A stretch of 64,000 nt of DNA from a virus. Taxonomy: Duplodnaviria; Caudoviricetes. This document shows, piece after piece, positions 1 through 64,000 of the stretch; within the stretch, counting starts at the first letter, position 1, and every line of letters begins with the position of its first letter. Under the pieces are notes generated by a model. It made no database searches. It was not told the DNA's origin and saw nothing but the letters and a program-made list of their open reading frames with translations. A program made the translations under genes and the position numbers. The stretch is from positions 495 to 64,494 of the IMG/VR virus record IMGVR_UViG_3300021403_000007; one strand, 5' to 3'.

Positions 1-321
1 CAAGCGCAAGTTGACGCTGGCACGGACAACGCTAATCCGGTCACGTCGTTGACTTTGGCTCAATCAACTTCACTCGATACTCGCTATGTCAATTTGACAG
101 GCGATACGATGACCGGTCCACTCAACATTCCTGTTCAGCCAGCCGCTCCTAACGAAGCCACCAACAAACAATACGTTGATGAGGCGATTGCTGCCAGTGC
201 GCTTTATCAAGGGGTGTGGCATGTAGCAGCAAACCAACCTGATCTTACTCCTGGAGTTATGAACCCACTTAACGGTTGGTCGTGGATCGCACAGACGATT
301 GACCCAAATATTCCAGAAACA
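1..321. repeat. Terminal redundancy copy 1 (matches 63680-64000, about 96% identical)
   Basis: Direct codon-by-codon comparison: 13 mismatches in 321 nt. Confidence 0.95.
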
Positions 322-2307
322 GCGCCGGGTGGCTTGCCCGGCATTATTGGTTTGTTGATTGATAGCGGCGACCGTATTTTGTGGGATGCTGGAAACGGAA
401 TATATGATCTGGTTAAAGGTTCGTCACTTAGCATTCGAGAGGCGCGGGCAACTTTTGTTGAAGTTGCTGGTGACTCGATGAGTGGTGATTTAAGATTTAC
501 TGGTAATGCACAAATTTTGTTTCCTGACAGTTCTGGGGTGCAACGTTCGTCGCTCGGGCCGCTTACTTTACAAACAGGTAATGGCGGTGAACAGCCACAA
601 ATTTGTAATGTTTTTGGATTGAACGGTCGTGATATCATTGACACGGTTAATGGTGACGCACGTTATGTAAACATGACCGGTGATACCATGACAGGGTATC
701 TCACCCTAAATGCTGATCCAATTAATGCTATGCACGCAGCGACTAGAGATTATGTTGATAATCATCTTATTACTCTTGAAGCTTTGAAGGTGGATCGTGC
801 TGGCGACACCATGACTGGGCCGCTTTCTCTGCCGCCTGGTATGCCTACGACTGCTTTACAAGCTGCTCATAAAGTTTATGTTGATCAATCAATTACGACC
901 AATGCTTTATGGAAAGGTGTTTACCTTCCTTCTGTAAATTTTCCTGATCTTAATCCTGCGAGTATGAACCCGCAAGATGGTTGGACATGGTTTATTCAAA
1001 CTCAAAACCCAGATGTGCCAGAAATTATTCCGCCTAATGTTCCTGGTCTCTCGGGGATGTCAGTTGACTCCGGTTGGATTGTGTGGTGGAATGCGGGTGC
1101 TAGTCAATATAATTTGACTAGAGGACCGGGTTTATCTTATACGACAGCGCAAGCTGACTTCGTTAATAAGACTGGCGATACAATGGTTGGGGATTTAAAT
1201 TTTTCGGCTCTTGTGGGGCTTAATTTAGCTGGTGCAAAAATTGTCTCTAGTGGTCCTCAACTCTATATTCAAAGACCACCGGGAGATAGTCAACCACAGA
1301 TTTTGAACAATGCTGGTAATCAGGCGAGTGATATTATCGATGCTAGCGGTGGCGTGATGAATGGGGCATTGCGCTGGCCATCGAGTTTGTCTAATGCGCC
1401 CCCGAACACTACTGGTACGAGCACTGGTGAGAGACTTCGATTGTGGGATCAAGCTAATGCATCGGGGTTCGGAATAGGTATTGAAGGCGGCAATATGTGG
1501 TTCAACACCCAAGTCGCTGGTAATGGTTATAAATTTTATAATGGAGCAAACTTACAGTACACGCTTGGCTCTACTTTTACCTTTCCAGGTGGCCAATTCA
1601 ACGGTGATGTGAATGTGAATGGCAATCTTAATGTAATAGGCGCAAAATTGATAAATACTGGCGTCTTAGTTGCAAGTACGACACAAAATACACGAGGGGT
1701 AGAGCTTCAAGCAACCATTAACAGTGCTGGGGTCAATAGTCCTTGGCTTAGGGGGGTAGACAGCACTGTTAACGAAATGGGTCGGATGTGGTGGGATGGC
1801 CCTGGATGGAATGGCCGCTGGGAAGCCAGACTCCATTGGGGTATGAATATGGGCGGTTATGGCTGGTCTGAAAATGGACGATTTGAAACTTATGCATCTG
1901 GTGGTCAGCTTTATATCACTAATAGTATTTCTTGTCAATCGCTGACCCAGCGCAGTTCGCGTATGATTAAACATGATATTCGTGCAGTACAGCACGACGA
2001 AGTTAATGCAGCATGGGATGCAATTAAGCCAAAACGCTTTAGACTTAATAACCCGCCACCGCCTGTAGATGACCAAGGTGTACTTTTACGTAACCCAACA
2101 CCGTATCCTGCACCGCGATTGCGTTGGGGGTTTGTCGCTGAAGAAATTGCGGAGCAGGCAGTGCTTGAAGACTTGGTAACGTATGCTGCGCCAGGTACAC
2201 CTGATGCGGGAGTTGAGGGTTATGATCTTGCTCAATTGCTGGCGCTGACCATTGCTAAGGTAAAGTCACTGGAAATTGAGCTTGCTACTCTCAAGAGTAA
2301 ACAATGA
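1..2307 (+). CDS. Long tail fibre protein, C-terminal part, with YVNxTGDTMTG repeats and a C-terminal S74-like intramolecular chaperone domain
   Basis: Frame 1 is open from base 1 (the track start at 49 is an artefact of the cut). Repeated [16 protein letters not shown] fibre motifs; C-terminal [10 protein letters not shown]...WGFVAEE...coiled coil. Confidence 0.85.
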
Positions 2308-2747
2308 CACAAGCTTTTGACGTAGCAGTTCACGTTCCCACCGCTGTTCCGGTGGTAGGGGATATTATTGAAGTTGTGCAACCTGTCCCGTACAGAACAA
2401 ACTGGGTTACGCCCCCACCTGGGCTTCAGGGACCAATTGGACCTATTGGCCCACAGGGTATACCGGGACCATTAGGGCCAGTAGGACCAGAAGGCCCCCA
2501 GGGTTTACAAGGGTTTCCTGGGCCACAAGGTCCACAAGGTAATGCAGGGTTTATGGGGCCAATGGGACCACCAGGAGGACTTGGGGAGGCTCCCATCAAT
2601 GGTCAAGTATATGGTCGTCAGGATGGATTATGGGTAGTTGTAACTGCTGGTCCTGGTGGCGGTATTCCTGATGCACCGATTAATGGAACCTCGTATGTAC
2701 GACTTAACGCAACATGGTCAAACGTAATCGACGCTGGAGCTTTTTAA
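2304..2747 (+). CDS. Collagen-like fibre/connector protein
   Basis: Gly-X-Y run; two (D/E)APINGxxYxR motifs; C-terminal IDAGAF. Confidence 0.8.
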
Positions 2748-3698: not shown

Positions 3699-4898
3699 GT
3701 GGTCAATATTATACGAAATCTTCATAGTGCATCACCGGGTGTTCGCCCTGTTGGTAAATCATTGGGTGAGATTTACACGAACCTAGCTGACATGCAGTTA
3801 GGTGTTGTTAACAACACAAACACTGCTATTGATTTGATTGCAGTAAGATTTTTTAGTACATTGGCAAGTTATTTCACTGGGGATTGTGTTCTTTACAATG
3901 GGAAAATTTATATCGCCAATGGTAATTTTGGACCGGGACCATTTAACTTACTTGACTGGAACGTTGTCACAATCGCAACGGACCTCAACCTTTATATGCC
4001 TCTTACGGGGGGCACGTTCACCGGCGTTGTTATATTTCCTGCTAACAACAGTGTGGTGATTAACGGAGCAGCGGCAACCCAGCGAGCGCTTCTAGCTCAG
4101 ACTGCTGGCGTTAACCGCTGGCAATTACAGTTTGCTGACTTCACCGCTGAAACCGGTGCTAACTCTGGGAGTAATTTTGTCCTTACGCCTTGCAACGATG
4201 CAGGCAACCTTCTCCCTGCCGCTCTTAGAATTAATCGTGCTACTGGGGTTACTGACTTCGCAGTCACTCCCACTGTTGCAGGTGTGCCTATTGGTGGGGG
4301 TGGTGGTGCAACTGTTAGTGATACGGCTCCTACTAATCCATCAGAAGGAGATTTATGGTGGGATAGTGTTGGCGCACAAATGTATGTTTGGTACGTAGAC
4401 CCCACTACTTCTCAGTGGGTGCCAGTAATTAGTAGCACTGGACCTCCAGGACCAGTTGGGCCAGCAGGGCCAATAGGGCCACAAGGGCCAGTAGGTCCAC
4501 AAGGACCGTCAGGGACGCCCGGTGTTGGCACATATCTTCAAACCCAGCCTGCGACCACCGCGGGAATCAACCTTGTTTCAGGCTCCCTTGTGGACATCTT
4601 GTCGCTCAATTTGGGAACCGGCGTTTGGTTTGTCACTGCACAAATGCCGATCTATGGCACGACCACTAGCTCAGCCACTTTCCGGCTTTGGGACCACGGT
4701 GCAAACACCATCGGTGCGGGGATTACTTTTATCACCGCCGCTGCTGCTCGCAACTATGTAACGGTTTGCGGATTCGCCGTTAATCTGCCGACCGTCTGGA
4801 TCGGGGTGCAGGCGAATAACGCGAACATGTCCATAAACCCCGGCGTATCGAATTTTGGCACAATCGATGTGCAGATGACCGCTTTTAGGATCGCATGA
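3699..4898 (+). CDS. Tail fibre-like protein with collagen segment
   Basis: Paralogous N-terminus to 2766; GDLWWDS..SQWV module; Gly-X-Y repeat. Confidence 0.8.
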
Positions 4899-7231: not shown

Positions 7232-7546
7232 ATGACTTACACACTCACCAACGACCCAGGAATTATAGTTCGCGATGAAGATGGCGCGTTTATTCCTATG
7301 GACCCATCGAACGTAGACTATCAGGTTTATCTGGCGTGGGTTGAAGAAGGGAACGAACCGAACCCAGCACCTGGCATACCAACGCCACCAATAGAAGATG
7401 TCACACCCACCATAGAAGAGCTTGCTGAAGCCACCGCTGATCAGGAACAACGCATCCAAGTGCTTGAAAACCAAATGGCAACGTTTCAAGCCGAGTTGAA
7501 ACAAATATCGGAACGACTTACTCCGAGAGTTAAAGGGGCTAAATAG
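7232..7546 (+). CDS. Tail fibre assembly chaperone-like protein
   Basis: IPMDPSNVDYQVYLAWVEEGNEP motif plus coiled coil; ATG at 7232 directly after the upstream stop. Confidence 0.65.
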   Translation: MTYTLTNDPGIIVRDEDGAFIPMDPSNVDYQVYLAWVEEGNEPNPAPGIPTPPIEDVTPTIEELAEATADQEQRIQVLENQMATFQAELKQISERLTPRVKGAK

Positions 7547-7548
7547 CC

Positions 7549-9324
7549 ATGACATCAAGAGTTCAAACCCTTCGTTCTGCCGTACCGCTGGTGCGACCTA
7601 CGGGGCGTCAACCGGGAGAGTTATACGTTAATTACCCTGATAACCAATTGGGTGTTATTAACGTTTCTGCTGCTCCAATTGATTTGATTGCAATAAGATT
7701 TTTTAGTCCTTTAACAAGTTACAATATTGGTGATTTCGTTGTTTATAGTGGAGATATATGGCACGCTCTTGCACCTTCTCCACCTGGCCCCTTTATTACT
7801 GCAAATTGGGCAACGGTAACTGGTACTGGTGGTACAGGCGGTGGTGGAGGTGTAGGTATACCTGATGCTCCGTTTGATGGTCGATTGTATGGTCGGCAAA
7901 GTGGAGTATGGTTGGCTGTTCCAACTGATTATTTACTCTTGAGCGGCGGGACTTTATCAGGGCCGTTGGTACTCGCCGCTGATCCGACTCTTCCTCTTGG
8001 TGCTGTTACCAAACAATATGTAGACGCTAATTCTAGCACCGGTGGCCCTTTTCTTCCGTTAGCTGGTGGTACTTTAACAGGGCCACTTGCTCTTAATGCT
8101 GACCCAACAACCAATCTTCAAGCTGCTACAAAACAATATGTAGATGCACATTCTGGCACAGGTGGAGGTGCTGGTTATCTTCCGTTAACCGGTGGCACTC
8201 TAACAGGACCGCTCACCCTTGCCGCTGATCCAACTGTTCCTCTTGGCACTGCTACAAAAGAATATGTTGATAATAGTATTACGGCAGCAATTGCTGGTAT
8301 TAGTGGCGGGGTTGCGTCTAATACTAATTATGTTGTTAACGGGGATATGATACTAGATCAACGTAATAATCCTGCATCGATTACAGTTACTGGTGGATTA
8401 TATTATCCGGCTGATTTTTGGACCTCAGCCAATCTTCAATTGAGAGCAGGGACTTTACAACGAGTTACTATTACTTTGCCTACTGATCCTTTTTTTGTTG
8501 CTAGTAACTTGTCTAATTATCTTATGTTTACGCCGACTCAACTTACATCAATACTCAGTTCTGATTATACTTATTTCCAAGTAGCACTTCCTCTTAACAG
8601 TATGGCCGCAGCTTTGGCTGGCACGCCAAATGCAAAACCGTTAACATTGTCATTTTGGGTTAGATGTGCTACTTTAACTGGGACATTTAGTGGGTCATTA
8701 GTTTTCATTGGTGCCGGGGCACGGTCATATCCGTTCACTTATACTATTCCAACAGCTAACTTATGGACAAAGATTACAATCCCAATACCAGGCGATACGA
8801 ATTCTCAAGTGTGGTCTCTTAATCATATGTCTGTTTATTTTGATATGGGTTGTGGGTCGTTGTTTCGTACGACTGCTAATGCTTGGGTTAATGGTGAATT
8901 TTTCGGTGTTACTGGATCAGCGACCCCTTGTACAACTCCTAGTAGAAGTTTTTCTGTTGGTGGGGTTAAACTAGAAATTGGTAATGTTGCAACACCTTTT
9001 ATTCCTTCGAACCCTAGTGCGGTATTGGCGGCTGCACAAAAATACTATCAGAGTTATAGTAACTTGTCAGTTAGTGGTGCTGTTATGGGTATTGGTTCGA
9101 GTGGTTATGTTATGAATAATTCATTTACATTTCCAGAAATGGCAGGCGTTCCAACAATTACTGTGTCACAGGGTAGTATTGCCAATACGAACGCAGGGAT
9201 AGCATCAATAGTGTCGGGTTCAATTACACCCAATTCGTTTCAAGCACAGGCTTCTACCAATGTCGCTACGCCACCTGGAACGTGTGTTAGTAATTTTAAT
9301 GCTGTTCTGTCGGTGTTAACTTAA
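7549..9324 (+). CDS. Tail fibre protein (Mtd_N-like N-terminus, three LPLxGGTLTGPL repeats, carbohydrate-binding-like head)
   Basis: Tandem ~40-aa repeats; head paralogous to 5974-7230. Confidence 0.8.
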   Translation: MTSRVQTLRSAVPLVRPTGRQPGELYVNYPDNQLGVINVSAAPIDLIAIRFFSPLTSYNIGDFVVYSGDIWHALAPSPPGPFITANWATVTGTGGTGGGGGVGIPDAPFDGRLYGRQSGVWLAVPTDYLLLSGGTLSGPLVLAADPTLPLGAVTKQYVDANSSTGGPFLPLAGGTLTGPLALNADPTTNLQAATKQYVDAHSGTGGGAGYLPLTGGTLTGPLTLAADPTVPLGTATKEYVDNSITAAIAGISGGVASNTNYVVNGDMILDQRNNPASITVTGGLYYPADFWTSANLQLRAGTLQRVTITLPTDPFFVASNLSNYLMFTPTQLTSILSSDYTYFQVALPLNSMAAALAGTPNAKPLTLSFWVRCATLTGTFSGSLVFIGAGARSYPFTYTIPTANLWTKITIPIPGDTNSQVWSLNHMSVYFDMGCGSLFRTTANAWVNGEFFGVTGSATPCTTPSRSFSVGGVKLEIGNVATPFIPSNPSAVLAAAQKYYQSYSNLSVSGAVMGIGSSGYVMNNSFTFPEMAGVPTITVSQGSIANTNAGIASIVSGSITPNSFQAQASTNVATPPGTCVSNFNAVLSVLT

Positions 9325-9339
9325 CTCTGGGAGTAAACA

Positions 9340-10539
9340 ATGCTTGACTTCCCTGCTAGTCCGACAGTTGGGCAACAGTTCACTGCCGGAGGTGTAACGT
9401 GGACTTGGGACGGAGCTAAATGGACAGGCAGTGGTGGGGGTGGTACAGGGGGTGGTGGTATCCCCGATGCTCCTTCCAACGGTCAACTCTATGGTCGCAT
9501 GAATGCAACATGGTCAGTTGTCCCGACTTCAAGTGGTGGCTTACCTGATGCACCGTTAGACGGTCAGACATATGGTCGTAATAATGCGGCATGGGTGGTT
9601 GTTCCTACCACTGGTAGCGGCGGAACAACGATCCCAAATCCGTTACAGGTTAATGGGGCTGGGGCATCTGGTTATACAGGCACCCATGTTGCTTCTGCTG
9701 CTGATTTGTTTCTTAATAAGACTGCTTCAGGTAATCAATCGACTGTTAGTGGTACAACAAATGGTTCACTTCGCTGGCAACTTGTTTTGGGTAATGAGAG
9801 CCCAGAAGGTTCTGGTGACAGTGGTTCGGGTTTCGATCTTGTTTCATTTACTAACAGTGGCGCTCAAAAGGGAATACCGTTACAAGTTGATCGTGCGACT
9901 AATGCAACTGTAATTAATGGTATTGGAGCTACAACTCCTATTGGGGGGTTTTCGGCAACAGGTGCAAACCTTATTATTAATAAACCGGGATCGGGCCATT
10001 TAGGACAACTTAATTATATGAACAATGGTTCGTTCAGATGGCAGATTGGTAGTAATGCCACCGCTGAAAGTGGTAGTAATAACGGATCGGGATTTTTTAT
10101 ACAACGGTTTAGCGATAGTGGTTCAGCACTCGGTTTGCCTTTACAGATTGACCGGCCTACTGGCACATGCACGTTTGCTGTTGCCATTGTTAACGGTGCT
10201 TCGGATGCCAGACTAAAAGAAAACGTTAAACCCTTAGAAGGTTCACTTGACAAGGTTTTGGCACTTCAAGGTGTATCGTTTAACCTTATAGCGACACCTG
10301 ATAAGCCAGAGATCGGACTAATCGCTCAGGACGTTCAACCAATCGTGCCTGAAATTATTCAGGCATACGACGCAACTGGGCCGGATCACCATCAATCTGA
10401 GTCAATGCTGGCACTGGATTACCCCAAGCTAACTGCGCTTCTGATTGAGGCAGTGAAAACCCTAACCGCTAGAGTAGCAACACTTGAAACTGCCCTAGGA
10501 AGTGGCACATTTACGTTTACTCCGGGAGTACGACAATGA
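9340..10539 (+). CDS. Tail fibre/spike protein with C-terminal peptidase S74 chaperone domain
   Basis: SDARLKENV...GLIAQDVQPIVPE...DYPKLTALLIEAVK motif. Confidence 0.85.
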   Translation: MLDFPASPTVGQQFTAGGVTWTWDGAKWTGSGGGGTGGGGIPDAPSNGQLYGRMNATWSVVPTSSGGLPDAPLDGQTYGRNNAAWVVVPTTGSGGTTIPNPLQVNGAGASGYTGTHVASAADLFLNKTASGNQSTVSGTTNGSLRWQLVLGNESPEGSGDSGSGFDLVSFTNSGAQKGIPLQVDRATNATVINGIGATTPIGGFSATGANLIINKPGSGHLGQLNYMNNGSFRWQIGSNATAESGSNNGSGFFIQRFSDSGSALGLPLQIDRPTGTCTFAVAIVNGASDARLKENVKPLEGSLDKVLALQGVSFNLIATPDKPEIGLIAQDVQPIVPEIIQAYDATGPDHHQSESMLALDYPKLTALLIEAVKTLTARVATLETALGSGTFTFTPGVRQ

Positions 10540-10829
10540 GCAACGGTAAACATAACCCTCTGCTTGACCCTAAAACTGGGCATACGGTTTATGCCCCTGA
10601 AGGGCTACCGCAACAAGACGTGCTTGGGGTTGCACCACAACCTCATATGGCTGAACCCGCAAAGCCAGATCACATGATGACAGACATTACTCATGATGAA
10701 ATGGCAGCGGGGAAGCGAGCATCAGATTATTATTCGCAAAGACGTCAAGCTGAACTCGACTATGGGAGTAACTTCGCACTACGACGTATCGAACGTATCA
10801 AAGAACATCATCTGACGCACAAGAAGTAA
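10536..10829 (+). CDS. Hypothetical protein
   Basis: ATGA overlap with the upstream gene; fills the gap in the operon. Confidence 0.7.
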   Translation: MSNGKHNPLLDPKTGHTVYAPEGLPQQDVLGVAPQPHMAEPAKPDHMMTDITHDEMAAGKRASDYYSQRRQAELDYGSNFALRRIERIKEHHLTHKK

Positions 10830-10830
10830 A

Positions 10831-48289: not shown

Positions 48290-48290
48290 A

Positions 48291-48791: not shown

Positions 48792-48836
48792 TACAACCTG
48801 TGGTTGCTTGACAGGGGTCAGGTTGTATGCTATACT
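48792..48836 (+). promoter_or_regulatory. Sigma70 promoter upstream of terL with TACAAC-N24-GTTGTA inverted repeat
   Basis: TTGACA(48808)-ggggtcaggttgtatgc-TATACT(48831). Confidence 0.8.
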
Positions 48837-51137: not shown

Positions 51138-51595
51138 AGTTCACCTTCGATCATGGGAGCGCCAATAGAAATATTATCTTGAGCGCCATCAGAGTATGTA
51201 ATGTTCAAATTAAAAACATTACCCATTGACCCGCCACCTAGTGATCCCGCTGCTGGTTCCAGTGCGCCTAGCCCGGCTATTCTGGCTAACTCAGCTAAGG
51301 CTCTAACTTTCGCGCTAAGAGGCGCGTCGCTACTGTCTCTTGCCGCTCTAAAAATATGTATCATTAATTCTTCAACTATTGCTGCTGCATTTGCTTTAAC
51401 GCGTTTGGGGGTGTTATCTGCCCCCCTCCACTCAACTTTGCGCGCCGTCAGTGCCGCGTTAAAGCTAGGTATTGTTTTAAGGTAATCATATTCTTCTTGA
51501 GTTACTCCCGTGAGTTTTAATATTTCATCCTCTTCAAGGATATCTTTCGCCAATTCGTTGATCAGATTACGTATTTTTATTTCACTGAGGGTCAT
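51068..51595 (-). CDS. Hypothetical helical protein, possibly terminase small subunit
   Basis: HTH-like N-terminus, helical middle, FNLNI beta tail; lies between terL and portal. Confidence 0.5.
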   Translation of the reverse strand: MTLSEIKIRNLINELAKDILEEDEILKLTGVTQEEYDYLKTIPSFNAALTARKVEWRGADNTPKRVKANAAAIVEELMIHIFRAARDSSDAPLSAKVRALAELARIAGLGALEPAAGSLGGGSMGNVFNLNITYSDGAQDNISIGAPMIEGELYSEGNIFGEVSSVFVNDEFEEL

Positions 51596-51728: not shown

Positions 51729-54146
51729 GTGGTCCCCGCTTCTTTACTCGATAAATATCGAGCGCTATCTCAAAACGCCCAATTAGTGAGTGAGCGCGAC
51801 TGTAGGAAGCGCGAACCACTAAAAGATACTCCAAGAGTAAAGAATGATCTGGTGCCAACTGGGGTCTTAAGGGTCGTCGGCGGGGCCGATACAACCCAGC
51901 AAGTACAGCGAGAGAACGCTGTCCGGGCTCAGAGCCAACTTCCCCCTGCTTCAGAGCTTACTGGGTTAGCCGGTTTTATCACTGACCAGTTTATCTTGAT
52001 GCGTCGGCACAGGGACAACACCTCTGCCGGTTGGTCGCACAGATTGTTGATGGCGCTTCGCGCCTTTAATGGTGTGTACGAGAACGACGTAATAGAACAA
52101 ATCAAAAAGTTTGGTGGGAGCCAAGTTTATGCTCGCATAATCGCAATGAAAGCGCGAGGGACAACTTCGTTATTAAGGGATGTTTATTTGGGGGCTGAAC
52201 GTCCCTGGGGGTTAGAGCCTTCGCCTGATCCCCAGGTTCCACCCGAGATAATGAGCGCGATCCAGCAACTTGTTAAAAGCGAAATACAAGGCGCGGTAAA
52301 AGCCCATCAAGATGCGACGCAGTTACAAGCCGCTCACTTGAGCGGCCTTAGTGCAATGCATGAGCAGAATGCAAACCAACCAGCAGTAGCCCATGCGCAA
52401 GCGCCCCAAGCTCCACCGCCTCCCCAACCCTTACCTGATGCAAACGCGATACGCGATAGATTCACCGAACTTGAGACTGCTGCGCGAGATGCAGCAAAGC
52501 GTAACGCTGCTAAGAAAGCAAAAATTGCAGAAGATAAAATACAGGAGATACTTGCTCAAGGTGGCTTCTATACTGCTTTTGCTGAATTCCTCGTTGATTT
52601 ACCTATATTTCCTTATGCGGTAATTAAAGGTCCGGTAGTAAGAATTAAGACCAGTGTTGACTGGCAGCGCGACCCAGTTACTCTTAAGAGTACTGCACAA
52701 ACTACACAAAAACCTATTTTATGTTGGGAGCGTGTCAGCCCCTTTGATATCTACTGGACACCTGGGGTTGCGGATATTGGCGACGCCAATATCATTGAGC
52801 GCTCTAGGTTAACCCGGAAAGAACTCAATGACCTCCTCGACCTGCCGGGTTATGATCAAGCAGCAGTACGGGCTGTCTTGGACGACTATGGACGTGGTGG
52901 ACTGGTTGACAACTGGGATCAAACCGATGCCGAGCGGGCCATTTTGGAGTCGCGAGAAAATCCCAGGTTTAATCAGAGTGGACTTATTGCATGTCTCCAA
53001 TTTAGTGGTTGGGCACAAGGTAAAAGTTTGCTTGACGCAGGTTTGCCTCCAGCGATGATTAGCGATGCGACGCGTGATTATTTCATTGAAGCTTGGCTGA
53101 TAGGGCGCTATGTTATCAAAGTTCAACTTTCCCCGTCGCCGAGGAAACGTCATCAATATTACGTTACCTCTTTTGAAAAAGTTCCGGGCACTGTCGTTGG
53201 GAACGGACTCCCAGACTTACTCGCTGATATTAGTACCGTGGCGAATGCCACTTTACGAGCACTTGTTAATAATCTTAGTATTGCAAGCGGACCTCAAGTT
53301 GTCGTCAGTGACGACCGACTCGCAGACGGGGAGGATGGTGAAGACTTATATCCATGGAAACGTTGGCATGTCAAGTCTGATCCATTTGGTAATAACACTC
53401 AGGCGGCGATCACGTTCTGGCAACCCCAGGCTAACTCTCAAGAGTTAATGTCGGTTTACACAGCTTTTAGTACATTGGCCGACGAGATGTCCGCTATACC
53501 AAAGTTTGTGCAAGGTATGCCAGGGGCAGGGCCGACCGGTCGCACAGCTTCTGGGTTGGCGATGTTGATGCAGAACGCTGCAAAGATTCTTCAAACGGTA
53601 GCGTCGAATATTGATCGGGATGTGGTTGAGGGCTTACTAACAAACCTTTTAGATATGATTATGCTCACTGATACTTCGGGGTTACTTGATGGGCAAGAGG
53701 AAGTTAGAATATTGGGTGTCAACGTTGCGATGGCGAAAGAGGCCCAAATTCAGCGCGAGCTTGAGTTTCTGCAAATCACCGCCAACCCGATTGATATGCA
53801 AATCATCGGACCCAAAGGTCGTGCCATTGTTCTTAAACAGGTCGCCGATCATCTCAACATTCCCGGTGCTGATATTGTTCCGTCCGAAGAAGAGCTTGAC
53901 GATCAGCAAAAGATGCAACAAGCGGCAGCGGCGGGTGCAGCACAGGGGCAACAGGCTTCTGGAAACACCCAACTTGCTGGACAACACGCCCAAAACGCTA
54001 GACAGGCTCAGGGGCAACAAGCACCTCGACCCGCTCAAGGCGGTCCACAGCTAAACACACAACACCCAGCAGCGGCAGGGCCGCCAGCGGGTACAGGTCC
54101 AAACGTTCAAGGCATGACTACGCCTCAAGCTAGTCCAGGAGAGTAG
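51729..54146 (+). CDS. Portal protein (true start possibly GTG 51852)
   Basis: Size and position; WERVSPFDIY, GNGLPDLL..Q..N, RTASGLAMLM motifs; Gln-rich tail. Confidence 0.88.
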   Translation: MVPASLLDKYRALSQNAQLVSERDCRKREPLKDTPRVKNDLVPTGVLRVVGGADTTQQVQRENAVRAQSQLPPASELTGLAGFITDQFILMRRHRDNTSAGWSHRLLMALRAFNGVYENDVIEQIKKFGGSQVYARIIAMKARGTTSLLRDVYLGAERPWGLEPSPDPQVPPEIMSAIQQLVKSEIQGAVKAHQDATQLQAAHLSGLSAMHEQNANQPAVAHAQAPQAPPPPQPLPDANAIRDRFTELETAARDAAKRNAAKKAKIAEDKIQEILAQGGFYTAFAEFLVDLPIFPYAVIKGPVVRIKTSVDWQRDPVTLKSTAQTTQKPILCWERVSPFDIYWTPGVADIGDANIIERSRLTRKELNDLLDLPGYDQAAVRAVLDDYGRGGLVDNWDQTDAERAILESRENPRFNQSGLIACLQFSGWAQGKSLLDAGLPPAMISDATRDYFIEAWLIGRYVIKVQLSPSPRKRHQYYVTSFEKVPGTVVGNGLPDLLADISTVANATLRALVNNLSIASGPQVVVSDDRLADGEDGEDLYPWKRWHVKSDPFGNNTQAAITFWQPQANSQELMSVYTAFSTLADEMSAIPKFVQGMPGAGPTGRTASGLAMLMQNAAKILQTVASNIDRDVVEGLLTNLLDMIMLTDTSGLLDGQEEVRILGVNVAMAKEAQIQRELEFLQITANPIDMQIIGPKGRAIVLKQVADHLNIPGADIVPSEEELDDQQKMQQAAAAGAAQGQQASGNTQLAGQHAQNARQAQGQQAPRPAQGGPQLNTQHPAAAGPPAGTGPNVQGMTTPQASPGE

Positions 54147-54376: not shown

Positions 54377-54451
54377 GGTTTTTACTTTTTAGTGGTTCGT
54401 CCTAGCGCAAGCGCAGACGAACGTTACTACTGGAGTAACAGGAGAGCGATA

Positions 54452-55066: not shown

Positions 55067-55284
55067 AGAAGTCTGAAGACCCTGGGTTTTTTGCCCATGG
55101 GGGTAAGACGAAAATGTTTGGCAAGGGCTCTGCTGGTCCGGCCAAAGCAGCGATCTCTGGTAAGGAGAGTAATGACCTTGGCGGCGGTGAATGGGCCAAG
55201 GGTGGTTCCCAACATATGTTTGGGAAGGGCTCGGCTGGCCAGAAAACTCCCGGAGTAAGCGGGAAGGAATCGCAAGTCGGGTGA
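55051..55284 (+). CDS. Small basic protein with an internal tandem duplication
   Basis: Two copies of [FW]AxGGxxxMFGKGSAGxxxxxxSGKES. Confidence 0.7.
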   Translation: MAKVIKKSEDPGFFAHGGKTKMFGKGSAGPAKAAISGKESNDLGGGEWAKGGSQHMFGKGSAGQKTPGVSGKESQVG

Positions 55285-55844: not shown

Positions 55845-55865
55845 ACATAATACTATGAGAGTAAA

Positions 55866-56779: not shown

Positions 56780-57953
56780 CAACGTTCAAACAAAACCGAC
56801 AAAAACTCCTGACCCTGGCGTTAGGCTGCCAGAAGCCGTTATGCGGGCAGCGGCACGGGCGAACGAATTAGCTGAACAGCAACGTGTTAACACACAAAGT
56901 CAGCCTCAATCTAATGTTCAAATGTCATTCGCTGACGTGAACTCTCCTACACCCCCTGTCGCTGAACGCCCACAGACCAACCCTTTACTAGCGACAAGAC
57001 AACCGGCTCCTGCTCCTACTCCCCAACCTACCCCTCAACCTACTCCCCAGAGTAACGGGCAAGCCAAACAATATTCTGAAGATGAATTCCGAGCAATGGT
57101 CGGGCGTTACGAGAAATCACAGAAAGAAAACCAAAACCTTGTTAGTCGCGTCAATGAAATGCAGCGACTACTTGCAACTGTTCAATCGCCTCCCAACAAT
57201 CAAGTTGGTCGAGGCGACGTAACATTTAATACACCCATTGCACCACGAAAGTATATCACTCCCCAAGACGAGAAAGAATGGAGTGTTGAGTTAATCGATA
57301 TGGCTCGCCGTGCCGCTAAAGAAGTGGCAGAACAAGAATTGGCACCTGTGCGCAACGAGATTGGCGCGGTTCGTCAATCATTGGGTAATGTTCAGAGTCA
57401 TGTTGCGTTGGATGCACGCGGACAAGTCTATCAGCGGCTTGAGAGTGAATTTGGTGCTGATTGGGATGCTACGATAAATCGTGATCCTGAGTTTTTAAAT
57501 TGGTTGGGTCAGATTGACCCTATGACTGGGCTTCAGCGAAAGAATATCTTGCAACATGCTTTCGAACAAGGAGAAGCGTCTCGCGTAGTAGCAACGTTTA
57601 AGAGGTATCAGGCGGAACAGTTGGCGGCTTCGAGTCCCGTACAGACTGGAAGATCATCGCCGGGCAACGGGGCAGAAAGCCCTGAGAGTGGTACACAATT
57701 CGCGAATGTGGCCCACTCTCGGAGTAATCCTGCAACCACCCCGGCGGTCGATCTTGCAAGTCTTGCGGCACCAGGCCGAGCGCGTCCGGGGCAGACACAA
57801 GCTCCCCCCGATAAGCCTATAATAACGGGTGCGGAGATTGCGCAATTCTACTCGGACGTCACTAAGGGTAAATACAAGGGCCATGAAGAACTTCAAGCCC
57901 AAGTAGAAGCCCAAATCAGTGAAGCATCGAGAGAAGGACGCATTCGCCGCTAA
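56772..57953 (+). CDS. Capsid scaffolding protein
   Basis: Coiled coil; DPEFLNWL; C-terminal EAQISEASREGRIR; directly before the MCP. Confidence 0.75.
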   Translation: MADNVQTKPTKTPDPGVRLPEAVMRAAARANELAEQQRVNTQSQPQSNVQMSFADVNSPTPPVAERPQTNPLLATRQPAPAPTPQPTPQPTPQSNGQAKQYSEDEFRAMVGRYEKSQKENQNLVSRVNEMQRLLATVQSPPNNQVGRGDVTFNTPIAPRKYITPQDEKEWSVELIDMARRAAKEVAEQELAPVRNEIGAVRQSLGNVQSHVALDARGQVYQRLESEFGADWDATINRDPEFLNWLGQIDPMTGLQRKNILQHAFEQGEASRVVATFKRYQAEQLAASSPVQTGRSSPGNGAESPESGTQFANVAHSRSNPATTPAVDLASLAAPGRARPGQTQAPPDKPIITGAEIAQFYSDVTKGKYKGHEELQAQVEAQISEASREGRIRR

Positions 57954-58015: not shown

Positions 58016-59050
58016 ATGGCTCTCGGTCTTGCTAGTGGCGCAACACAACCGCCACTTTATCCTGCTGGTTCGATTAATCCCGACTATGTAGCTGCTGGTT
58101 TTGTTCCTGAAATTTGGTCCGGCAAGCTCATTGAAAAGTTCTACGCCGCCACGGTTTTAGCGGCGATCACAAATACCGACTACGAAGGCGAGATCAAATC
58201 TTACGGCGACCGTGTTCGTATTCGTACCAAACCAACTATCACCATCAATGATTACCTGATTGGCGGTGATTTGACGCTTCAGCGTCCTGTTGGTGGTCAG
58301 ACGGAACTCACCATCGATCAAGGCAAGTATTTCGCGACCATCCTTGACGATGTGATCGAGAAACAATCCGACATCAACAATCTCTCGTTGTGGGCGGACG
58401 ACGCGTCTGAACAAATGAAAATCGCGGTCGATACTGACGTGCTTAACTGGATGCACTCGGGTAACGCCGGTGGCACTCCATGGGCAGATTCGAACAATCG
58501 TGGTATCGCTGCTGGTATTATTTCCGGCAACATTAATCTGGGAGTAACCGGCACGCCTGTTGGCACCGTCGGTCGCAACCCGGCAGTTGGTCAAGTCGAG
58601 ATGATCGACTTGTTGTTGAGGCTGGGGCAAGCACTTGACGAGCAAAATATCCCTGAAACTGGGCGCTGGGTTGTTATGCCCACCTGGGCTGCGTTCCAGA
58701 TCAAACGTTCAGAATTGCGTGAAGTGTTCTTGTCAGGTGATCAGATCAGTATTCTTCGCAATGGCCGGTTTGGTCAGGTGGATCGTTTTACGATCTATTC
58801 GTCTAACCTTCTTCCTAGCGGCCCTGCTGGTTCTGCTGGACTGGCTCCTACAGAGTGGGTGATCTACGCCGGTCATGCCCACGGCTTAACGTTTGCATCA
58901 CAACTCACAAACGTGGAGACACTTCGTTCTGAACGTACGTTCGGTCAAATCTTGCGTGGACTGCAAGTTTACGGCAGAATGGGCCTTCCTGCCCCTCCCC
59001 TGGGGGTTGTTGCGCTTGCCGAAGCAATCGTGGTTCAAGCAGGTCCGTAA
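58016..59050 (+). CDS. Major capsid protein (P22-coat-like, HK97 fold)
   Basis: FVPEIWSGKL, NTDYEGEI..GDRVRI, RGLQVYG. Confidence 0.9.
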   Translation: MALGLASGATQPPLYPAGSINPDYVAAGFVPEIWSGKLIEKFYAATVLAAITNTDYEGEIKSYGDRVRIRTKPTITINDYLIGGDLTLQRPVGGQTELTIDQGKYFATILDDVIEKQSDINNLSLWADDASEQMKIAVDTDVLNWMHSGNAGGTPWADSNNRGIAAGIISGNINLGVTGTPVGTVGRNPAVGQVEMIDLLLRLGQALDEQNIPETGRWVVMPTWAAFQIKRSELREVFLSGDQISILRNGRFGQVDRFTIYSSNLLPSGPAGSAGLAPTEWVIYAGHAHGLTFASQLTNVETLRSERTFGQILRGLQVYGRMGLPAPPLGVVALAEAIVVQAGP

Positions 59051-59071: not shown

Positions 59072-59093
59072 GGGTGGGGGCAGTCCCCCACCT
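59072..59093 (+). terminator. Hairpin after the MCP gene
   Basis: GGGTGGGGG-cagt-CCCCCACCT. Confidence 0.55.
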
Positions 59094-59127
59094 ACTCTTA
59101 GAGTAGTATAAAACAAGTAAGGTAAAC

Positions 59128-60944: not shown

Positions 60945-62149
60945 AGTCGTTCAGCGCACCAGTTAATTTCAGCAACGCGGCTCAGTTTTATCCTGACAGC
61001 ACAGGGAAAATTGGTACGTTCTTGAAATCACCGGCAGCACAAACGTTGATCACATTAGATTATTCTCATAATCTTGCTACCGGAGTAACAGTTACTAAAG
61101 TTGCTTACGTTCTCGATGTTCAATCGACCCCCTTGTTGATTATAAGCAATTCCGTTACCACGGCTCAAATGTTAACATTTATTTTGAGTGGTGGGTGGGC
61201 AGGACTTACTTATGATCTAACAATACAAGCAACTTTGTCTACTGGGGCGGTTCGTACCGATGTTCTCACAATTGAGATAGTGGGAGATGATTGCATGAAA
61301 TATGATCCCTGCTGTCTTCCAATGGGGAAGCCCTTGGGTGCGCCTTCGCGTATTCCCAAGACGTTTCAACAGGCTGCTATGTCTAGTGATTGCAGCGTGT
61401 ATAAATCGTCTTGTATTAGTTATTACATTTGCGCTAGTGCGCCGGTTAACCCTAACGTAATGGACCAGTGGTATAACACAATCAATCACGGTATTTACGA
61501 ATATTTAACTGATGGTGTTAATTTCTGGTGGCAACCGTTCTTCGTGAACGTGAAATATGCAGTTGCATCGTTGTACTATCAAGCAAGGGCTGGTCAAACA
61601 GTGTTTAGTACTTTGGCACCAGACATGCTTGGTAATTCTGGGGTAATCAACCCGACAGATTTTGTACAAGCATATGTGAATGGTGTGCGATTGGTCCCAA
61701 CAACTGATTTCACGTTTGCTGGGCCTTCAACTGTGACATTGTTGCGACCTATACCGGCCACTGATATTGTGATGATTGATATTCTTGCTCCAACTGTAAT
61801 CACGCCTCCAATACCTCCAAGTGGCGGTGGTGGTGGCAATACTCAAATAGTTATTAGCGATACTGCGCCTGCAAATCCAACCACCGGTATGTTGTGGTTT
61901 GATAGTGTGGGTGGTAATCTTTACATTTGGTATACTGACCCTAACGGATCGCAATGGGTGGTTGTAGTTAACGCTGGTGGCGGTGGTGGTAGCGGTGGTG
62001 GTAGTACGCCTGCTGGTATAGTAATTGGTGACACTGCTCCAACAAGTCCAACAGTCGGTATGTTGTGGTTTGACAGTGTTGGTTGCCAACTTTATACCTG
62101 GTATTTTGATGGTAACACGTCGCAATGGGTAGTGGTGGTTAACGAATAA
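60941..62149 (+). CDS. Fibre-adaptor/hub-like virion protein
   Basis: ATGA overlap; YVNGVRL module; two tandem GMLWFDSVG..SQWV modules. Confidence 0.7.
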   Translation: MKSFSAPVNFSNAAQFYPDSTGKIGTFLKSPAAQTLITLDYSHNLATGVTVTKVAYVLDVQSTPLLIISNSVTTAQMLTFILSGGWAGLTYDLTIQATLSTGAVRTDVLTIEIVGDDCMKYDPCCLPMGKPLGAPSRIPKTFQQAAMSSDCSVYKSSCISYYICASAPVNPNVMDQWYNTINHGIYEYLTDGVNFWWQPFFVNVKYAVASLYYQARAGQTVFSTLAPDMLGNSGVINPTDFVQAYVNGVRLVPTTDFTFAGPSTVTLLRPIPATDIVMIDILAPTVITPPIPPSGGGGGNTQIVISDTAPANPTTGMLWFDSVGGNLYIWYTDPNGSQWVVVVNAGGGGGSGGGSTPAGIVIGDTAPTSPTVGMLWFDSVGCQLYTWYFDGNTSQWVVVVNE

Positions 62150-62164
62150 CTCTGAGAGTAAAAA

Positions 62165-64000
62165 ATGTCGAAGGCTTTTGACACCGCCCTATTCGTCCCC
62201 GAGCCCGAGCCCGATGTTGGGCAGTCGGCAGGTGTGCAGGTTGTTGGACCGCCATTCGATACCAATTGGTATTACTACGCGATAGCATCTGGCCCAGGCA
62301 TTATGATCAATGCTGACGTGCCTGCTGCTACGGCTCCTGAACAAACAATAGTGTCCGGTCCTGCACCGGAATTTGCTTGGGCGTCGAAAGCGCCTTATTA
62401 CCTCGGTGGTCTACCTGCACAGCCAATTTATAACCCAGCAGCGCCTTCTCCCGCCGGAACGATGTATTTTAATACTTCAGATCACACACCTTACGTCTTA
62501 TCGTATCAACCACTTACCAATGTGCCAATCTGGACCCCTCTGCCGGTAGCAACCCGCAACATGCTGACTATTGCAGCGAGTTTGCCTGCTGCTACACAGC
62601 AGGGGCAGATGCTGGTTGCTGGTGGTATACCCAATGGTGGGGTGTATCCGTGGACAGCATCAATTGGTATGTTTTTGGGGGCGCACCCTATACCGCCGAC
62701 CCAAGTTCCGGGGTCTGGGTCAATACCTGTTGGTTCGTTGTATTATAACACTTCAAATAATACTTTGTATGTATGGAATGGGTCAAGCTGGCAAACAATC
62801 ACGACGCCAACAAAGGCGGCAACAGCTAGTTTATATTATCAGGGCGCGTTAAACCAAATGGTTTATCCGTTGACAACACCGGATTTATTTGGTAATTCGC
62901 ATACTCTTGATCCAGTTGAGGCTGTTGAAGTCTATTTGAACGGTGTACGATTAACACCGGAAGGTGGATCTATACCGGGAGATTATTTGGTTACTGTTGC
63001 TACGTCATTGATTACTCTGGCAACAATTCCGCCAACTGGATCGATTGTTACGATTGATATTTTACAAGATCCGTTAACGCTTGGGCCGACGTTAGTATTG
63101 CGTGAAATGCTTATGCCAATTACAACGTTTGATGGTGTACAGACAACGTTTGATTTGATTGCTACAAGTGGTACTGGGATTGTTGTAAATGATCCGGTTG
63201 ATCTTAATGTTTCACTTGATGGTGTTTTACAAGAGCCTGGTGTCGCTTACATCCTTAGTACTGATGGCACTCAAATTATTTTTAGTGAGCCACCTATTGC
63301 TGATGCTGTTTGTTTTATTGTTTATTTCTCAAAAAGTGCTATTGGCTTTCTAAGTAGTGTTGAACATGATTTAACAATGACTGGTGATGGCACTGCTGCG
63401 AATCCGTTGAGTGCGGTACTTGCTTCAGAGGCAACGGGGCTTCCCGGTATTGTCTATGTACCAGTAAACGGTTTTGCTGGCACACCTAACGCGATCAACT
63501 TGGCTCCTGATGGCGGAATCAGTGTTGAAGTTGATTCGAGTAGTGGGCTTGTGGTGTCACCGGGAGCGCCGAACCCGCTTACTGGTAGAGCTACGGGTAG
63601 TGTGATCTCTGTTAATCTTGACAGTGGCAGCGCGCATGATTTCACTGGTGCAGGTGAATTAACGCTTGTTGTTGCCACTCAAGCGCAAGTTGATGCTGGC
63701 ACGGATAACGCTAATCCAGTCACATCGTTAACTTTAGCTCAATCAACATCGCTCGATACTCGCTATGTCAATTTGACCGGCGACACGATGACCGGTCCAC
63801 TCAACATTCCTATTCAGCCAGCCGCTCCTAATGAAGCCACCAACAAACAATACGTTGATGAGGCGATTGCTGCCAGTGCGCTTTATCAAGGGGTGTGGCA
63901 CGTAGCAGCAAACCAACCTGATCTTACTCCTGGAGTTATGAACCCACTTAACGGTTGGTCGTGGATCGCACAGACGATTGACCCAAATATTCCAGAAACA
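62165..64000 (+). CDS. Long tail fibre protein, N-terminal part (runs off the window end and continues at position 1; about 1273 aa when joined)
   Basis: ATG at 62165 after GAGAGTAA; translates MSKAFDTALFVPEPEP. Absent from the ORF track, consistent with no stop before the window end. 63680 (equivalent to position 1) is in frame (1515 nt = 505 codons). Confidence 0.8.
   Translation, partial: MSKAFDTALFVPEPEPDVGQSAGVQVVGPPFDTNWYYYAIASGPGIMINADVPAATAPEQTIVSGPAPEFAWASKAPYYLGGLPAQPIYNPAAPSPAGTMYFNTSDHTPYVLSYQPLTNVPIWTPLPVATRNMLTIAASLPAATQQGQMLVAGGIPNGGVYPWTASIGMFLGAHPIPPTQVPGSGSIPVGSLYYNTSNNTLYVWNGSSWQTITTPTKAATASLYYQGALNQMVYPLTTPDLFGNSHTLDPVEAVEVYLNGVRLTPEGGSIPGDYLVTVATSLITLATIPPTGSIVTIDILQDPLTLGPTLVLREMLMPITTFDGVQTTFDLIATSGTGIVVNDPVDLNVSLDGVLQEPGVAYILSTDGTQIIFSEPPIADAVCFIVYFSKSAIGFLSSVEHDLTMTGDGTAANPLSAVLASEATGLPGIVYVPVNGFAGTPNAINLAPDGGISVEVDSSSGLVVSPGAPNPLTGRATGSVISVNLDSGSAHDFTGAGELTLVVATQAQVDAGTDNANPVTSLTLAQSTSLDTRYVNLTGDTMTGPLNIPIQPAAPNEATNKQYVDEAIAASALYQGVWHVAANQPDLTPGVMNPLNGWSWIAQTIDPNIPET
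63680..64000. repeat. Terminal redundancy copy 2 (matches 1-321); implies a unit length of about 63679 bp
   Basis: caagcgcaagttga... restarts at 63680. Confidence 0.95.

Follow-up and report, generated by a model that had tools for sequence, protein, structure and literature searches.

Short DNA words repeated along an entire genome are known from cells and from phages. The cellular signals DUS and USS (uptake sequences), Chi, KOPS and HIP1 occur at about one copy per kb, are tolerated in genes, are selected on the DNA and exist as lineage variants matched to their reader. Dispersed phage repeats are otherwise known from a few actinobacteriophage clusters, and to our knowledge their function is understood only for stoperators; those of L5 are asymmetric 13-bp sites, bound by a monomer, which block transcription elongation and are tied to prophage immunity. 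The subject of this report is the palindrome TTACTC-N3-GAGTAA, dispersed over the genome of a tailed phage (Caudoviricetes; designated G000) belonging to a different and much larger phage group. The window analysed is a stretch of 64,000 nt, bases 495-64494 of the 64,494-bp IMG/VR record IMGVR_UViG_3300021403_000007. The palindromes very probably form a network of DNA sites that is read by a protein and is specific to the phage.

A search of the literature on dispersed or palindromic phage repeats found only the mycobacteriophage papers PMC4351075, PMC4557955 and PMC3203893, and no paper on the Rhizobium phages of the RHph_TM27A group or on the motif, supplements and subscription journals lying outside its coverage. 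Cluster O mycobacteriophages, with genomes of roughly 70 kb, carry more than 30 copies of a 17-bp dyad, TGTTCGG-N3-CCGAACA. The 34 repeat sites of Corndog comprise 14 intergenic sites, 10 near gene starts and 10 intragenic ones, with invariant arms; the sections of the paper that deal with the repeat describe no evident orientation relative to transcription and assign it no function (PMC4351075). The stoperators of Cluster A phages such as L5 and the repressor sites of the Streptomyces phage phiC31 amount to 18-30 dispersed sites for one phage protein (PMC4557955). In Cluster K, start-associated sequences (SAS) have a Shine-Dalgarno core motif 3-7 bp ahead of the starts of non-structural genes, and extended ones (ESAS) are inverted repeats with 17-bp arms, a 4-13 bp spacer and a subcluster-specific consensus, for which the passages concerned report little support for an RNA hairpin (PMC3203893).

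Enrichment, consensus and spacer of the palindrome

The perfect palindrome TTACTC-N3-GAGTAA is present in five copies, against none expected from 100 dinucleotide shuffles. At up to two mismatches 69 copies are found (five perfect, 40 with one mismatch and 24 with two), compared to 2.25 expected and a maximum of 6 in the same shuffles, or 3.1-4.5 when sequences were simulated with a third-order Markov model; chance may account for a few of the 24 copies with two mismatches. The enrichment persists when codons are shuffled synonymously with protein and codon usage held fixed (200 shuffles): 51 intragenic copies at up to two mismatches stand against 5.3 ± 2.1 (maximum 12), and 30 at up to one mismatch against 0.9. 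The signal does not reduce to GGAG half-sites without symmetric partners, although the right arm still doubles as a Shine-Dalgarno sequence at many gene junctions.

An original prediction, made from the letters of this stretch, had located five perfect copies, and all five lie exactly where it placed them. Its 40 near-perfect N3 copies were all found within 1 nt (36 with one mismatch and four with two, the copy placed at 21644 beginning at 21645), and its N4 copy at 20751 turned out to be a perfect TTACTC-N4-GAGTAA. The proposal that the spacer sequence is free was not upheld: a pyrimidine (C or T) occupies position 7 in 66 of the 69 sites and a purine (G or A) position 9 in 65, only the central base being free, and the true consensus is a 7-1-7 palindrome, TTACTCY-N-RGAGTAA. 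The spacer length, described as nearly fixed, is dominated by N3 but includes an enriched N4 minority. At up to one mismatch over the whole 64.5-kb record, N3 was found at 45 sites and N4 at 10, where 0.2-0.4 N4 copies are expected; spacers of N0-2 and N5-8 showed no enrichment in G000. Embedding in coding sequence, also proposed, is true of 51 of the 69 N3 sites, whereas 18 lie at gene edges or between genes, though about 95% of the window is coding.

The sites below were obtained by scanning for TTACTC-N3-GAGTAA at up to two mismatches and for TTACTC-N4-GAGTAA at up to one. All are palindromes and are given without strand; G-numbers and TM27A (Rhizobium phage RHph_TM27A) denote related genomes.

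Perfect N3
25188-25202, intragenic, 2267-aa gene
27876-27890, between stop codon and terminator-like hairpin
43942-43956, inside ATPase gene
45735-45749, between stop of 343-aa gene and terminator
47804-47818, intergenic, early region
Perfect N4
20751-20766
N3 with one mismatch
245-259
2745-2759, stop-to-start junction
4160-4174
7518-7532
9322-9336, stop-to-start junction
10517-10531, directly ahead of start codon
12446-12460
14620-14634
17750-17764
19716-19730, ahead of 2267-aa gene start
20448-20462
21645-21659
22410-22424
26836-26850
28766-28780
28842-28856
29690-29704
30038-30052
31761-31775, primase-helicase gene
33365-33379, intergenic
35032-35046, gene edge
36211-36225, SNF2 gene
37823-37837, exonuclease gene; homologous column occupied in G004, G007 and TM27A
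38587-38601, inside winged-helix gene
40499-40513, DNA polymerase; homologous column occupied in G005 and G008
42414-42428
43194-43208
44696-44710, abuts -10 box of promoter 44738-44710
45029-45043, directly ahead of start codon
45170-45184
46844-46858, fills spacer of promoter 46868-46841
47647-47661, directly ahead of start codon
48893-48907, ribosome-binding site of large terminase gene
49619-49633
51123-51137, 3' part of TerS-position gene; region conserved across dialects
51826-51840
54424-54438
58533-58547, only copy in capsid gene
62147-62161, stop-to-start junction
63924-63938, same fibre module as copy at 245
N3 with two mismatches
11631-11645
12047-12061
13656-13670, g170; homologous column occupied in G003
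15781-15795
16150-16164
16519-16533
21175-21189
26175-26189
32694-32708
32795-32809
34167-34181
34297-34311
36858-36872
37351-37365, gene edge
39533-39547, DNA polymerase
42024-42038
44338-44352, ATPase
46119-46133
50359-50373
55244-55258
55850-55864, ahead of start codon
57713-57727, 393-aa head gene; homologous column occupied in G010
59092-59106, two compensating mismatches, capsid/next-gene junction
61074-61088
N4 with one mismatch
2285-2300
20676-20691
23904-23919
24312-24327
32010-32025
34034-34049
41233-41248
52678-52693
57040-57055

Lineage-specific dialects

Related phages were compared by de novo counting of gapped palindromes in portal- or polymerase-anchored loci and in assembled genomes. 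Eighteen related genomes with G+C contents of 43-68% were assembled, 17 of them from stretches covering 96-100% of each record. A lineage-specific palindrome, or dialect, was found in all 18, including the cultured Rhizobium phage RHph_TM27A, and in most of the shorter loci as well. Among the portal-anchored loci, close relatives (67-100% portal identity) keep TTACTC-N3 and more distant ones use other words. The dominant forms are as follows.

TTACTC-N3: G000, G010
TTACTC-N4: G002
TCACTA-N4: G001
TAACTG-N4: G003
TTACTT-N4: G004
TTACCT-N4 (TTACCT-N4-AGGTAA): G005, G009, RHph_TM27A
TTACCC-N4: G007, G013, G015
TTACCT-N3: G008
TTACCG-N3: G012
TTACCC-N3, weak: G006
TTGTTCCG.CGGAACAA: G017, about 20 copies, fewer than 1 expected
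TTGATCC-N2-GGATCAA: G018, 31 copies, fewer than 1 expected
ACCGGT-N3-ACCGGT: G019, 17 copies, fewer than 1 expected

The last three genomes (loci L210-L219) are more distant relatives, with 38-40% polymerase identity and quite different palindromes. Polymerase-anchored loci added the dialects TTACCC-N3, TAACTA-N4 and GTTACT-N5. A genome typically holds 27-45 copies at up to one mismatch, with fewer than one expected, and the density including two-mismatch sites is about one site per 0.8-1.4 kb, G006 being sparser at about one per 2.3 kb. In the 12 genomes first analysed, the T.AC dialects use only N3 and N4 spacers, and each such genome has one dominant spacer with a minority of the other (36 N4 and 16 N3 in RHph_TM27A). 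No palindrome was seen in 16-22 kb of five to six polymerase-anchored loci (L186/187, L191, L193, L199; L195). L195 belongs to G019, whose palindrome emerged only in whole-genome analysis, and for this reason the other loci are not claimed to be free of a motif. Motifs of this kind could be used as lineage markers in viromes.

Selection on the individual sites

Aligned sites in relatives of about 96.5% identity share 98-99% of their arm positions and 87-93% of their spacer positions (20 and 10 sites). At protein identities of about 40-45%, sites are still found at homologous alignment columns despite differing dialects. Columns 338-350 of the DNA polymerase are occupied in five genomes representing four dialects, with overlapping columns in TM27A; the words and the encoded peptides are as follows.

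G003: TAACTGCTAGCAGTTA, LTASSY
G004: TTACTTGGCCAGGTAA, LTWPGN
G005: TTACCTGGCCCGGTAA, LTWPGN
G006: TTACCTGGCCGGGTAA, LTWPGN
G007: TTACCCTGCCGGGTAA, LTLPGK

Other shared columns are 78-83 and 900-906 of the polymerase, 272-277 of the exonuclease, and 119-125 and 259-269 of the ATPase. The gene in the small-terminase (TerS) position was detected in nine genomes; all nine have a site in it, eight of them within alignment columns 248-266. In 10 of 12 genomes the gene after the capsid gene has a site 11-28 nt upstream. The retention of sites at homologous codons through a change of dialect indicates purifying selection on each site.

The recurrence of the peptide TPGV in unrelated genes had been noticed beforehand. 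TPGV is encoded at 8 sites and its frame is used by 26 of the 51 intragenic ones, but two further frames, giving Y-S-x-S and L-L-x-E, are used by 15 and 10. Selection on the DNA rather than on the protein, as had been suggested, is borne out by the synonymous shuffles and by homologous-codon sites whose peptides follow the dialect. The protein sequence yields to the DNA word, the encoded peptides changing to fit the dialect, and it is for this reason that TPGV-type peptides recur; recurrent peptides of this sort should not be taken for protein motifs. The phage offers a clear case in which a signal at the DNA level overrides protein sequence across a whole viral genome.

Distribution of the sites along the genome

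The genome of G000 is organised in three blocks.

1-29.8 kb, rightward: fibres, internal virion proteins of 1548 and 2267 aa, lysis genes
29.7-48.6 kb, leftward: DUF927 primase-helicase, SNF2 helicase, PD-(D/E)XK exonuclease, family-A DNA polymerase, DUF2201 protein, ATPase, small early genes
48.9-64 kb, rightward: large terminase (TerL), portal, capsid, more head and fibre genes

Sites are over-represented 2-4 fold in non-coding DNA in 10 of 12 genomes, G006 and G007 showing little or no excess. Within 30 nt upstream of start codons the excess is about 3-10 fold and includes G001 and G003, whose arms are not Shine-Dalgarno-like; in G000 such positions hold 16 of 80 sites, five-fold above random. 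A copy stands at most gene junctions in the early operons of G004 and G005, its right arm GGAGGTAAC being the ribosome-binding site. A promoter scan of 42.5-52 kb of G000 gave three sigma-70-like promoters as its best matches, two of which overlap or abut a site.

46841-46868, minus strand: TTGACA-16-TAAAAT, the strongest; palindrome in the spacer
44710-44738, minus strand: TTGACA-17-TATACT; palindrome begins at the last base of the -10 box
48808-48836: third promoter; copy 57 nt downstream, at the terminase ribosome-binding site

The promoters at 48792-48836 (plus strand) and 44710-44754 (minus strand) share the extended sequence TTGACAG..GTCAGGTTGTA...TATACT, and a promoter-less copy of AGGTTGTA lies near 46985. 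Palindromes also stand beside terminator-like hairpins, at 27876, 45735 and 59092.

The density differs between gene modules. In G000 the early region has 12 sites in 5.7 kb, compared to 57 in the other 58.3 kb, and the early small-gene region is the densest, with up to 8-10 sites per 3 kb in G004 and G005; a gradient from early to replication to head genes was present in the eight genomes inspected. Replication genes carry 1.03 sites per kb and internal-protein genes 0.78 per kb (10 sites in the 2267-aa gene), and the capsid, portal and large-terminase genes of 12 genomes together only 0.20 per kb (11 in 54.5 kb; P=7e-13 against the genome-wide rate). The gap between TerL (0.23 per kb) and polymerase (1.23 per kb) is five-fold at similar conservation. 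This gradient favours a transcriptional role over uniform coating. The spacing of the sites is more even than random in 7 of the 12 genomes (coefficient of variation 0.57-0.75, P<=0.011).

Nature and origin of the reader

Copies placed so often ahead of start codons could in principle act as RNA. Each would then form a short hairpin whose 3' arm is a Shine-Dalgarno sequence, and would sequester ribosome-binding sites or be bound by a phage translational repressor or endoribonuclease; RegA and RegB, which act on T4 early mRNAs, are a precedent. The excess upstream of starts, similar in all 12 genomes and in G000 to be compared with an expectation of 4% of sites, is in line with such a role, as is the occurrence of the right arm just ahead of ATG, gene after gene, in the early operons of G004 and G005. 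A palindrome also yields identical RNA from either strand, and in G004 alone arm mismatches on the transcribed strand show an excess of G.U over A.C (39 against 23). However, base-pairing is not maintained, and the hairpin was rejected on this count: over the 12 genomes G.U and A.C mismatches number 206 and 194 (p=0.58), at intergenic sites 47 and 51, and of the 24 double mismatches just one is compensatory. In a hairpin, positions 7 and 9 would fall in the loop, yet they are conserved as Y and R, and their pairs (CG 24, TA 14, TG 13 and CA 11 by hand count) show that the two preferences are largely independent. Moreover, most sites lie deep in genes, far from start codons, and TCACTA, TAACTG, TTGATCC and ACCGGT are not Shine-Dalgarno-like, yet the sites of G001 and G003 are enriched at starts; a 6-bp A/U-rich stem with a loop of 3-4 nt would probably be weak. 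An RNA element is accordingly held to be improbable, and the comparison favours a protein site on double-stranded DNA composed of two half-sites, in agreement with the dimeric site originally proposed. Roughly one helical turn separates the best-conserved positions T1, A3 and C4 from their mirrors, as would be usual for a helix-turn-helix dimer.

A host regulator or nucleoid protein, exploited by the phage, might be imagined to bind the sites, since the phage apparently relies on host RNA polymerase at all stages (the proteins screened included no phage RNA polymerase) and sites overlap sigma-70-like promoters. The dialects differ between related phages, which speaks against it, and bacterial genomes provide a further comparison. 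When one genome per species was scanned, portal relatives were found at 13 bacterial loci, the carriers being mostly Alphaproteobacteria (Bradyrhizobium, Pseudolabrys, Xanthobacteraceae, Methylocella, Acetobacteraceae and Rhodospirillales). No clear palindrome was seen in the 22 kb flanking the portal of these integrated relatives, which are low-density lineages sampled in the region of lowest density, and five carrier genomes were for that reason searched for TTACCT-N4-AGGTAA, at up to one mismatch and with the reversed pattern as control. The results are given per genome.

Bradyrhizobium, 8.7 Mb: 10 of 10 matches on a 60-kb phage contig; control 4 genome-wide
Second Bradyrhizobium (G022): 12 of 12 on two contigs, one with portal, the other (C166) of unexamined content; control 8
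Xanthobacteraceae metagenome-assembled genome: 5 of 5 in the 51-102 kb stretch of the portal-bearing contig; control 2
Pseudolabrys (G023): 6 of 9 on the contig with two prophage copies, 3 of 9 on other contigs; control 1
Fifth genome: no match; control 2

Pooled over the first four genomes, 33 of 36 matches lie on contigs that hold phage relatives; in G023 and G024 matches were assigned by contig, prophage borders not being mapped. The two portal regions of the 465-kb Pseudolabrys contig (L232 and L233) are 61.9 kb apart and show the same pattern of motif matches, as tandem prophages or an assembly duplication would. A host regulon should leave sites elsewhere in the chromosome, whereas none of the 10 copies in the 8.7-Mb Bradyrhizobium genome lies outside the phage contig. 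The lineage dialects and the near-absence of the motif outside phage-bearing contigs make a phage-encoded reader, as originally suggested, far more likely than a host protein, for which the probability is considered very small.

Candidate readers

Two proteins of G000 were retained as candidate binders.

38416-38778, minus strand: 120-aa winged-helix protein with an OmpR/PhoB-like effector-domain signature, leading candidate
51068-51595, minus strand: 175-aa protein in small-terminase position, in 83 loci, second candidate

Both had been put forward in the original prediction and both proved to be family-wide, but neither co-varies with the dialect beyond phylogeny. The helix-turn-helix proteins encoded at 36901 and 37363, named there as well, are unlikely binders, being present in only 2 of the 11 relatives compared; the 343-aa early protein was detected in 3 of 11.

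The winged-helix protein is encoded between polymerase and exonuclease and has counterparts in G001-G008 and RHph_TM27A, in the latter at record positions 34618-34977. From nine members a profile was built, whose best match in the PDB was 2m1b (E=3.9e-4), 14 of the 22 matches listed being OmpR/PhoB effector domains, with further weak matches to AspA, a centromere binder (E about 0.09); a match to a Trans_reg_C cluster in the Atlas (0.82) is a lead only. In the AlphaFold2 (AF2) model, helices at residues 51-62, 68-71 and 76-91 and strands at 98-100 and 103-105 have pLDDT values of 89-95, with about 90 over residues 41-120, and the predicted fold is a helix-turn-helix followed by a beta-hairpin wing. 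With an iterated hidden Markov model (HMM), the family was found in 12 of 16 near-complete palindrome-bearing genomes, as the C-terminal domain of a longer protein in G012 and G019. Relatives were gathered with the polymerase as anchor, and the gene lies just downstream of it in about 50 of 79 scored loci of at least 8 kb. All of these roughly 50 loci bear a motif once the GTTACT-N5 dialect is counted; 19 motif-bearing loci have no winged-helix gene within 10 kb, five of them being truncated there. The protein is named only as the most plausible candidate reader, because its fold class typically reads such sites.

The second candidate is encoded between portal and large terminase. Its gene is upstream of and co-oriented with TerL in G002, G004, G005, G009 and TM27A and convergent with it in G000 and G003, the RHph_TM27A equivalent lies at record positions 10702-11328, and the 83 loci, recovered by iterated search, include L059 and L104, which are stretches of G006. 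In the AF2 model a helical bundle at the N terminus is followed by two long helices and by strands at the C terminus, an order compatible with a small terminase; no PDB sequence or Pfam match was obtained, and Foldseek gave nothing significant (Sf6 gp1 at E about 2). Co-variation was assessed by eye and by partial Mantel tests on the overall identity of a region, a crude measure that excludes neither protein; for the N-terminal part of the TerS-like protein against dialect, given portal distance, partial r=0.03 (p=0.34). The presence or absence of G000 genes in relation to motif presence was tried as a test for the reader and rejected as uninformative; G006 has a weak motif together with the TerS-like protein.

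The 3' end of the TerS-position gene is overlapped by 70 nt, on the opposite strand, by a 213-aa open reading frame (ORF; 50496-51137, plus strand), whose stop codon is supplied by the palindrome 51123-51137. Antisense ORFs at 51201-51485 have weak tblastn matches in three relatives, and the coding assignment here needs care.

Function of the network

In the mechanism proposed, a phage-encoded dimer of two-fold symmetry would bind the palindromes through 7-bp half-sites TTACTCY, placed one or less often two bases apart, and the network would evolve together with its reader. The bound dimer would occlude early promoters and form a roadblock to host RNA polymerase at gene junctions and inside genes, as stoperators do. 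Early and middle operons would be shut down, read-through past the capsid gene would be dampened, and the most heavily expressed head genes would stay free of sites. The reader would be the winged-helix protein, whose gene (38416-38778) adjoins that of the DNA polymerase. In relatives that bear an integrase (G005, G006) or are integrated in a chromosome, the same network could serve prophage silencing. The roadblock with this protein as reader is advanced tentatively, its chance being put at slightly less than even.

A number of observations weigh against it. OmpR/PhoB domains usually bind direct and not inverted repeats. The Pfam family PF00486 (Trans_reg_C) matches three of the nine members, at best with E 1.2e-3 and below threshold, and not the G000 member, and Foldseek with the model returned generic winged-helix regulators only, none of them significant (best E 0.09). 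The protein was undetected by HMM in G013, G015, G017 and G018, which are complete and rich in palindromes. Its gene shows no excess of sites (upstream 9 against 8.3 expected, internal 19 against 13.7), and an autoregulatory site was rejected on this basis. In the same crude test as above, recognition helix and wing do not follow the dialect when polymerase distance is controlled (partial r=-0.04, p=0.76). As to the site map, the internal virion genes are late and long and yet rich in sites, contrary to a simple rule that late genes are kept clear. Stronger protein constraint (59% against 39% mean identity) might account for part of the scarcity of sites in capsid, portal and terminase genes, the excess at gene starts might mean no more than that a site costs least in non-coding DNA, and the even spacing suggests a structural or distributive role and not gene-by-gene regulation.

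The main rival takes the palindromes as a non-transcriptional tag of self that a phage protein would recognise. Set at regular intervals, the tag might serve packaging (the terminase initiating or cutting headfuls, with the TerS-position protein as reader), primase-helicase loading, compaction or coating, or defence against nucleases during the attack on host DNA. Such a tag accounts for the even spacing and for the essential absence of the motif outside phage-bearing contigs of four bacterial genomes as well as the roadblock does, but less well for the module bias. Some three quarters of the sites lie within genes, which is unexpected for classical operators; every TerS-position gene detected holds a site, in nearby 3' columns in all but one, and pac sites are known to lie inside terS genes; the weak AspA match of the winged-helix profile would fit as well. 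On the other hand, densities run from 0.20 per kb in the head core up to 3 per kb in early operons, an unevenness that pure spacing or coating would not lead one to expect, lineages of low density such as G006 exist, and the TerS-like protein neither co-varies with the dialect beyond phylogeny nor is confirmed in its fold as a small terminase, so that the tag is on balance unlikely, with a chance that is nevertheless appreciable. The palindromes might also spread by a mutational or selfish process, for instance biased repair or gene conversion tied to a nuclease or methyltransferase with sequence specificity, a possibility already raised for the highly iterated cyanobacterial palindromes. It would fit the very high copy number, the presence of copies in any context and the turnover of dialects, and suitable enzymes can be pointed to: an 88-aa HNH/endonuclease-VII-like protein in 7 of 11 relatives, and a putative methyltransferase in the annotation of RHph_TM27A. 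Neither a nuclease nor a methyltransferase is universal in the family, however; arms are more conserved than flanks in close relatives, sites hold their homologous codons through changes of dialect and a protein divergence of about 55-60%, and a module-specific gradient would be hard to obtain by neutral drive, all of which leaves this explanation quite improbable.

Uptake-sequence dialects offer an analogy for the phage dialects, with Chi, KOPS and uptake sequences as cellular counterparts. By extension, the palindromes might be a heritable 'genomic dialect', in which a fast-evolving phage protein would read the word of its lineage and so tell its own DNA from that of the host and of competing relatives. 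This extension is speculative and unlikely. If true, the word would be a tag for packaging, protection or exclusion of co-infecting kin; the phages would possess a viral system of self-identity like uptake-sequence dialects or Chi, and a shift of dialect would be a barrier between phage lineages.

The phage and its relatives

The G000 record is rated complete by CheckV; it begins and ends inside genes and is probably circularly permuted. A megablast of 12 kb of G000 against INPHARED gave no match. The portal has 458 relatives in IMG/VR, and the nearest cultured phages by this protein are Rhizobium phages, the RHph_TM27A group, at 50% portal identity; these phages of soil and rhizosphere form a large and mostly uncultured group. 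Tyrosine integrase (PF00589) was not detected in G000, nor are such genes present in G001 and G004; they occur in G005 (48205-48666, L208) and G006 (76-489, L209), and the group appears as a mixture of temperate and apparently non-temperate members. The sparsest motif densities are met in integrase-bearing relatives or those derived from bacterial genomes (G006, L180), yet G005 is dense.

The copies at 245-259 and 63924-63938, together with some 25 nt of flank on either side, make up a 65-nt stretch that is almost the same in the fibre gene 49-2307 and the gene 62165-64000, which runs off the window end; a fibre module is shared by the two genes. In the early region, about 500 nt at 47660-48170 have no convincing ORF and many G+C-rich stems and hold the perfect palindrome 47804; this stretch may be a structured non-coding RNA. 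Of ten small proteins compared with PHROGs, the only one to match was the 88-aa HNH-like protein (26526-26792, plus strand; phrog_4590, E=2e-18, with weak endonuclease VII and HNH matches), and PDB sequence searches with conserved proteins of 365 and 168 aa gave no match. Downstream of the polymerase, many relatives encode small proteins of a recurrent family that end in ...(F/Y)PS(D/E)xL(I/V/M)xxhxLL (L161 12463-12825, L175 13222-13503, L199 7306-7800, RHph_TM27A 36293-36571); several paralogues are possible per genome, and the family is also found in loci with no visible palindrome.

Comparison with known systems

The repeat described for Cluster O is the closest in form: like it, the palindrome of G000 has 7-bp arms around a short variable centre and more than 30 copies genome-wide (45 at up to one mismatch), both intergenic and intragenic. 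The Cluster O arms are different, the host is Mycobacterium and the phages are siphoviruses; no sequence or descent is shared with the G000 repeat, and the palindrome of G017, which looks like the Cluster O repeat, implies no homology. Compared to Corndog, where 10 of 34 sites are clearly intragenic in the account given, G000 has 51 of 69 within genes, its arms tolerate mismatches and it uses a second spacer length. With stoperators the network shares many dispersed sites (69 and 10 in G000) and, by inference, a single binding protein; unlike the stoperators as described, the sites are palindromes of 15-16 bp, exceed them two to four times in number and are mostly intragenic, in a genome in which no integrase was detected. 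No homologue of the L5 or phiC31 repressor came to light, no search having been aimed at one. The early-junction copies of G004 and G005 and the lineage-specific consensus recall SAS and ESAS, whereas SAS, in the account cited above, are asymmetric, in one orientation and nearly always at starts, and the G000 sites are palindromic, with a minority upstream of starts. The bacterial signals belong to cells and, apart from HIP1, are mostly asymmetric, and the readers of DUS, Chi and KOPS are known; the palindrome is viral and biased by module.

What is new here is the phage group and its hosts, the intragenic predominance, the series of dialects and the conservation of position through dialect change. 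The network offers a system in which the joint change of a DNA-binding specificity and of dozens of its sites can be studied, and a tractable one, with natural dialects, sites at the same codons whose peptides change, and the cultured Rhizobium phage RHph_TM27A. Lacking the defining features of stoperators and of SAS, the palindrome is best filed among the dispersed phage-encoded binding-site networks.

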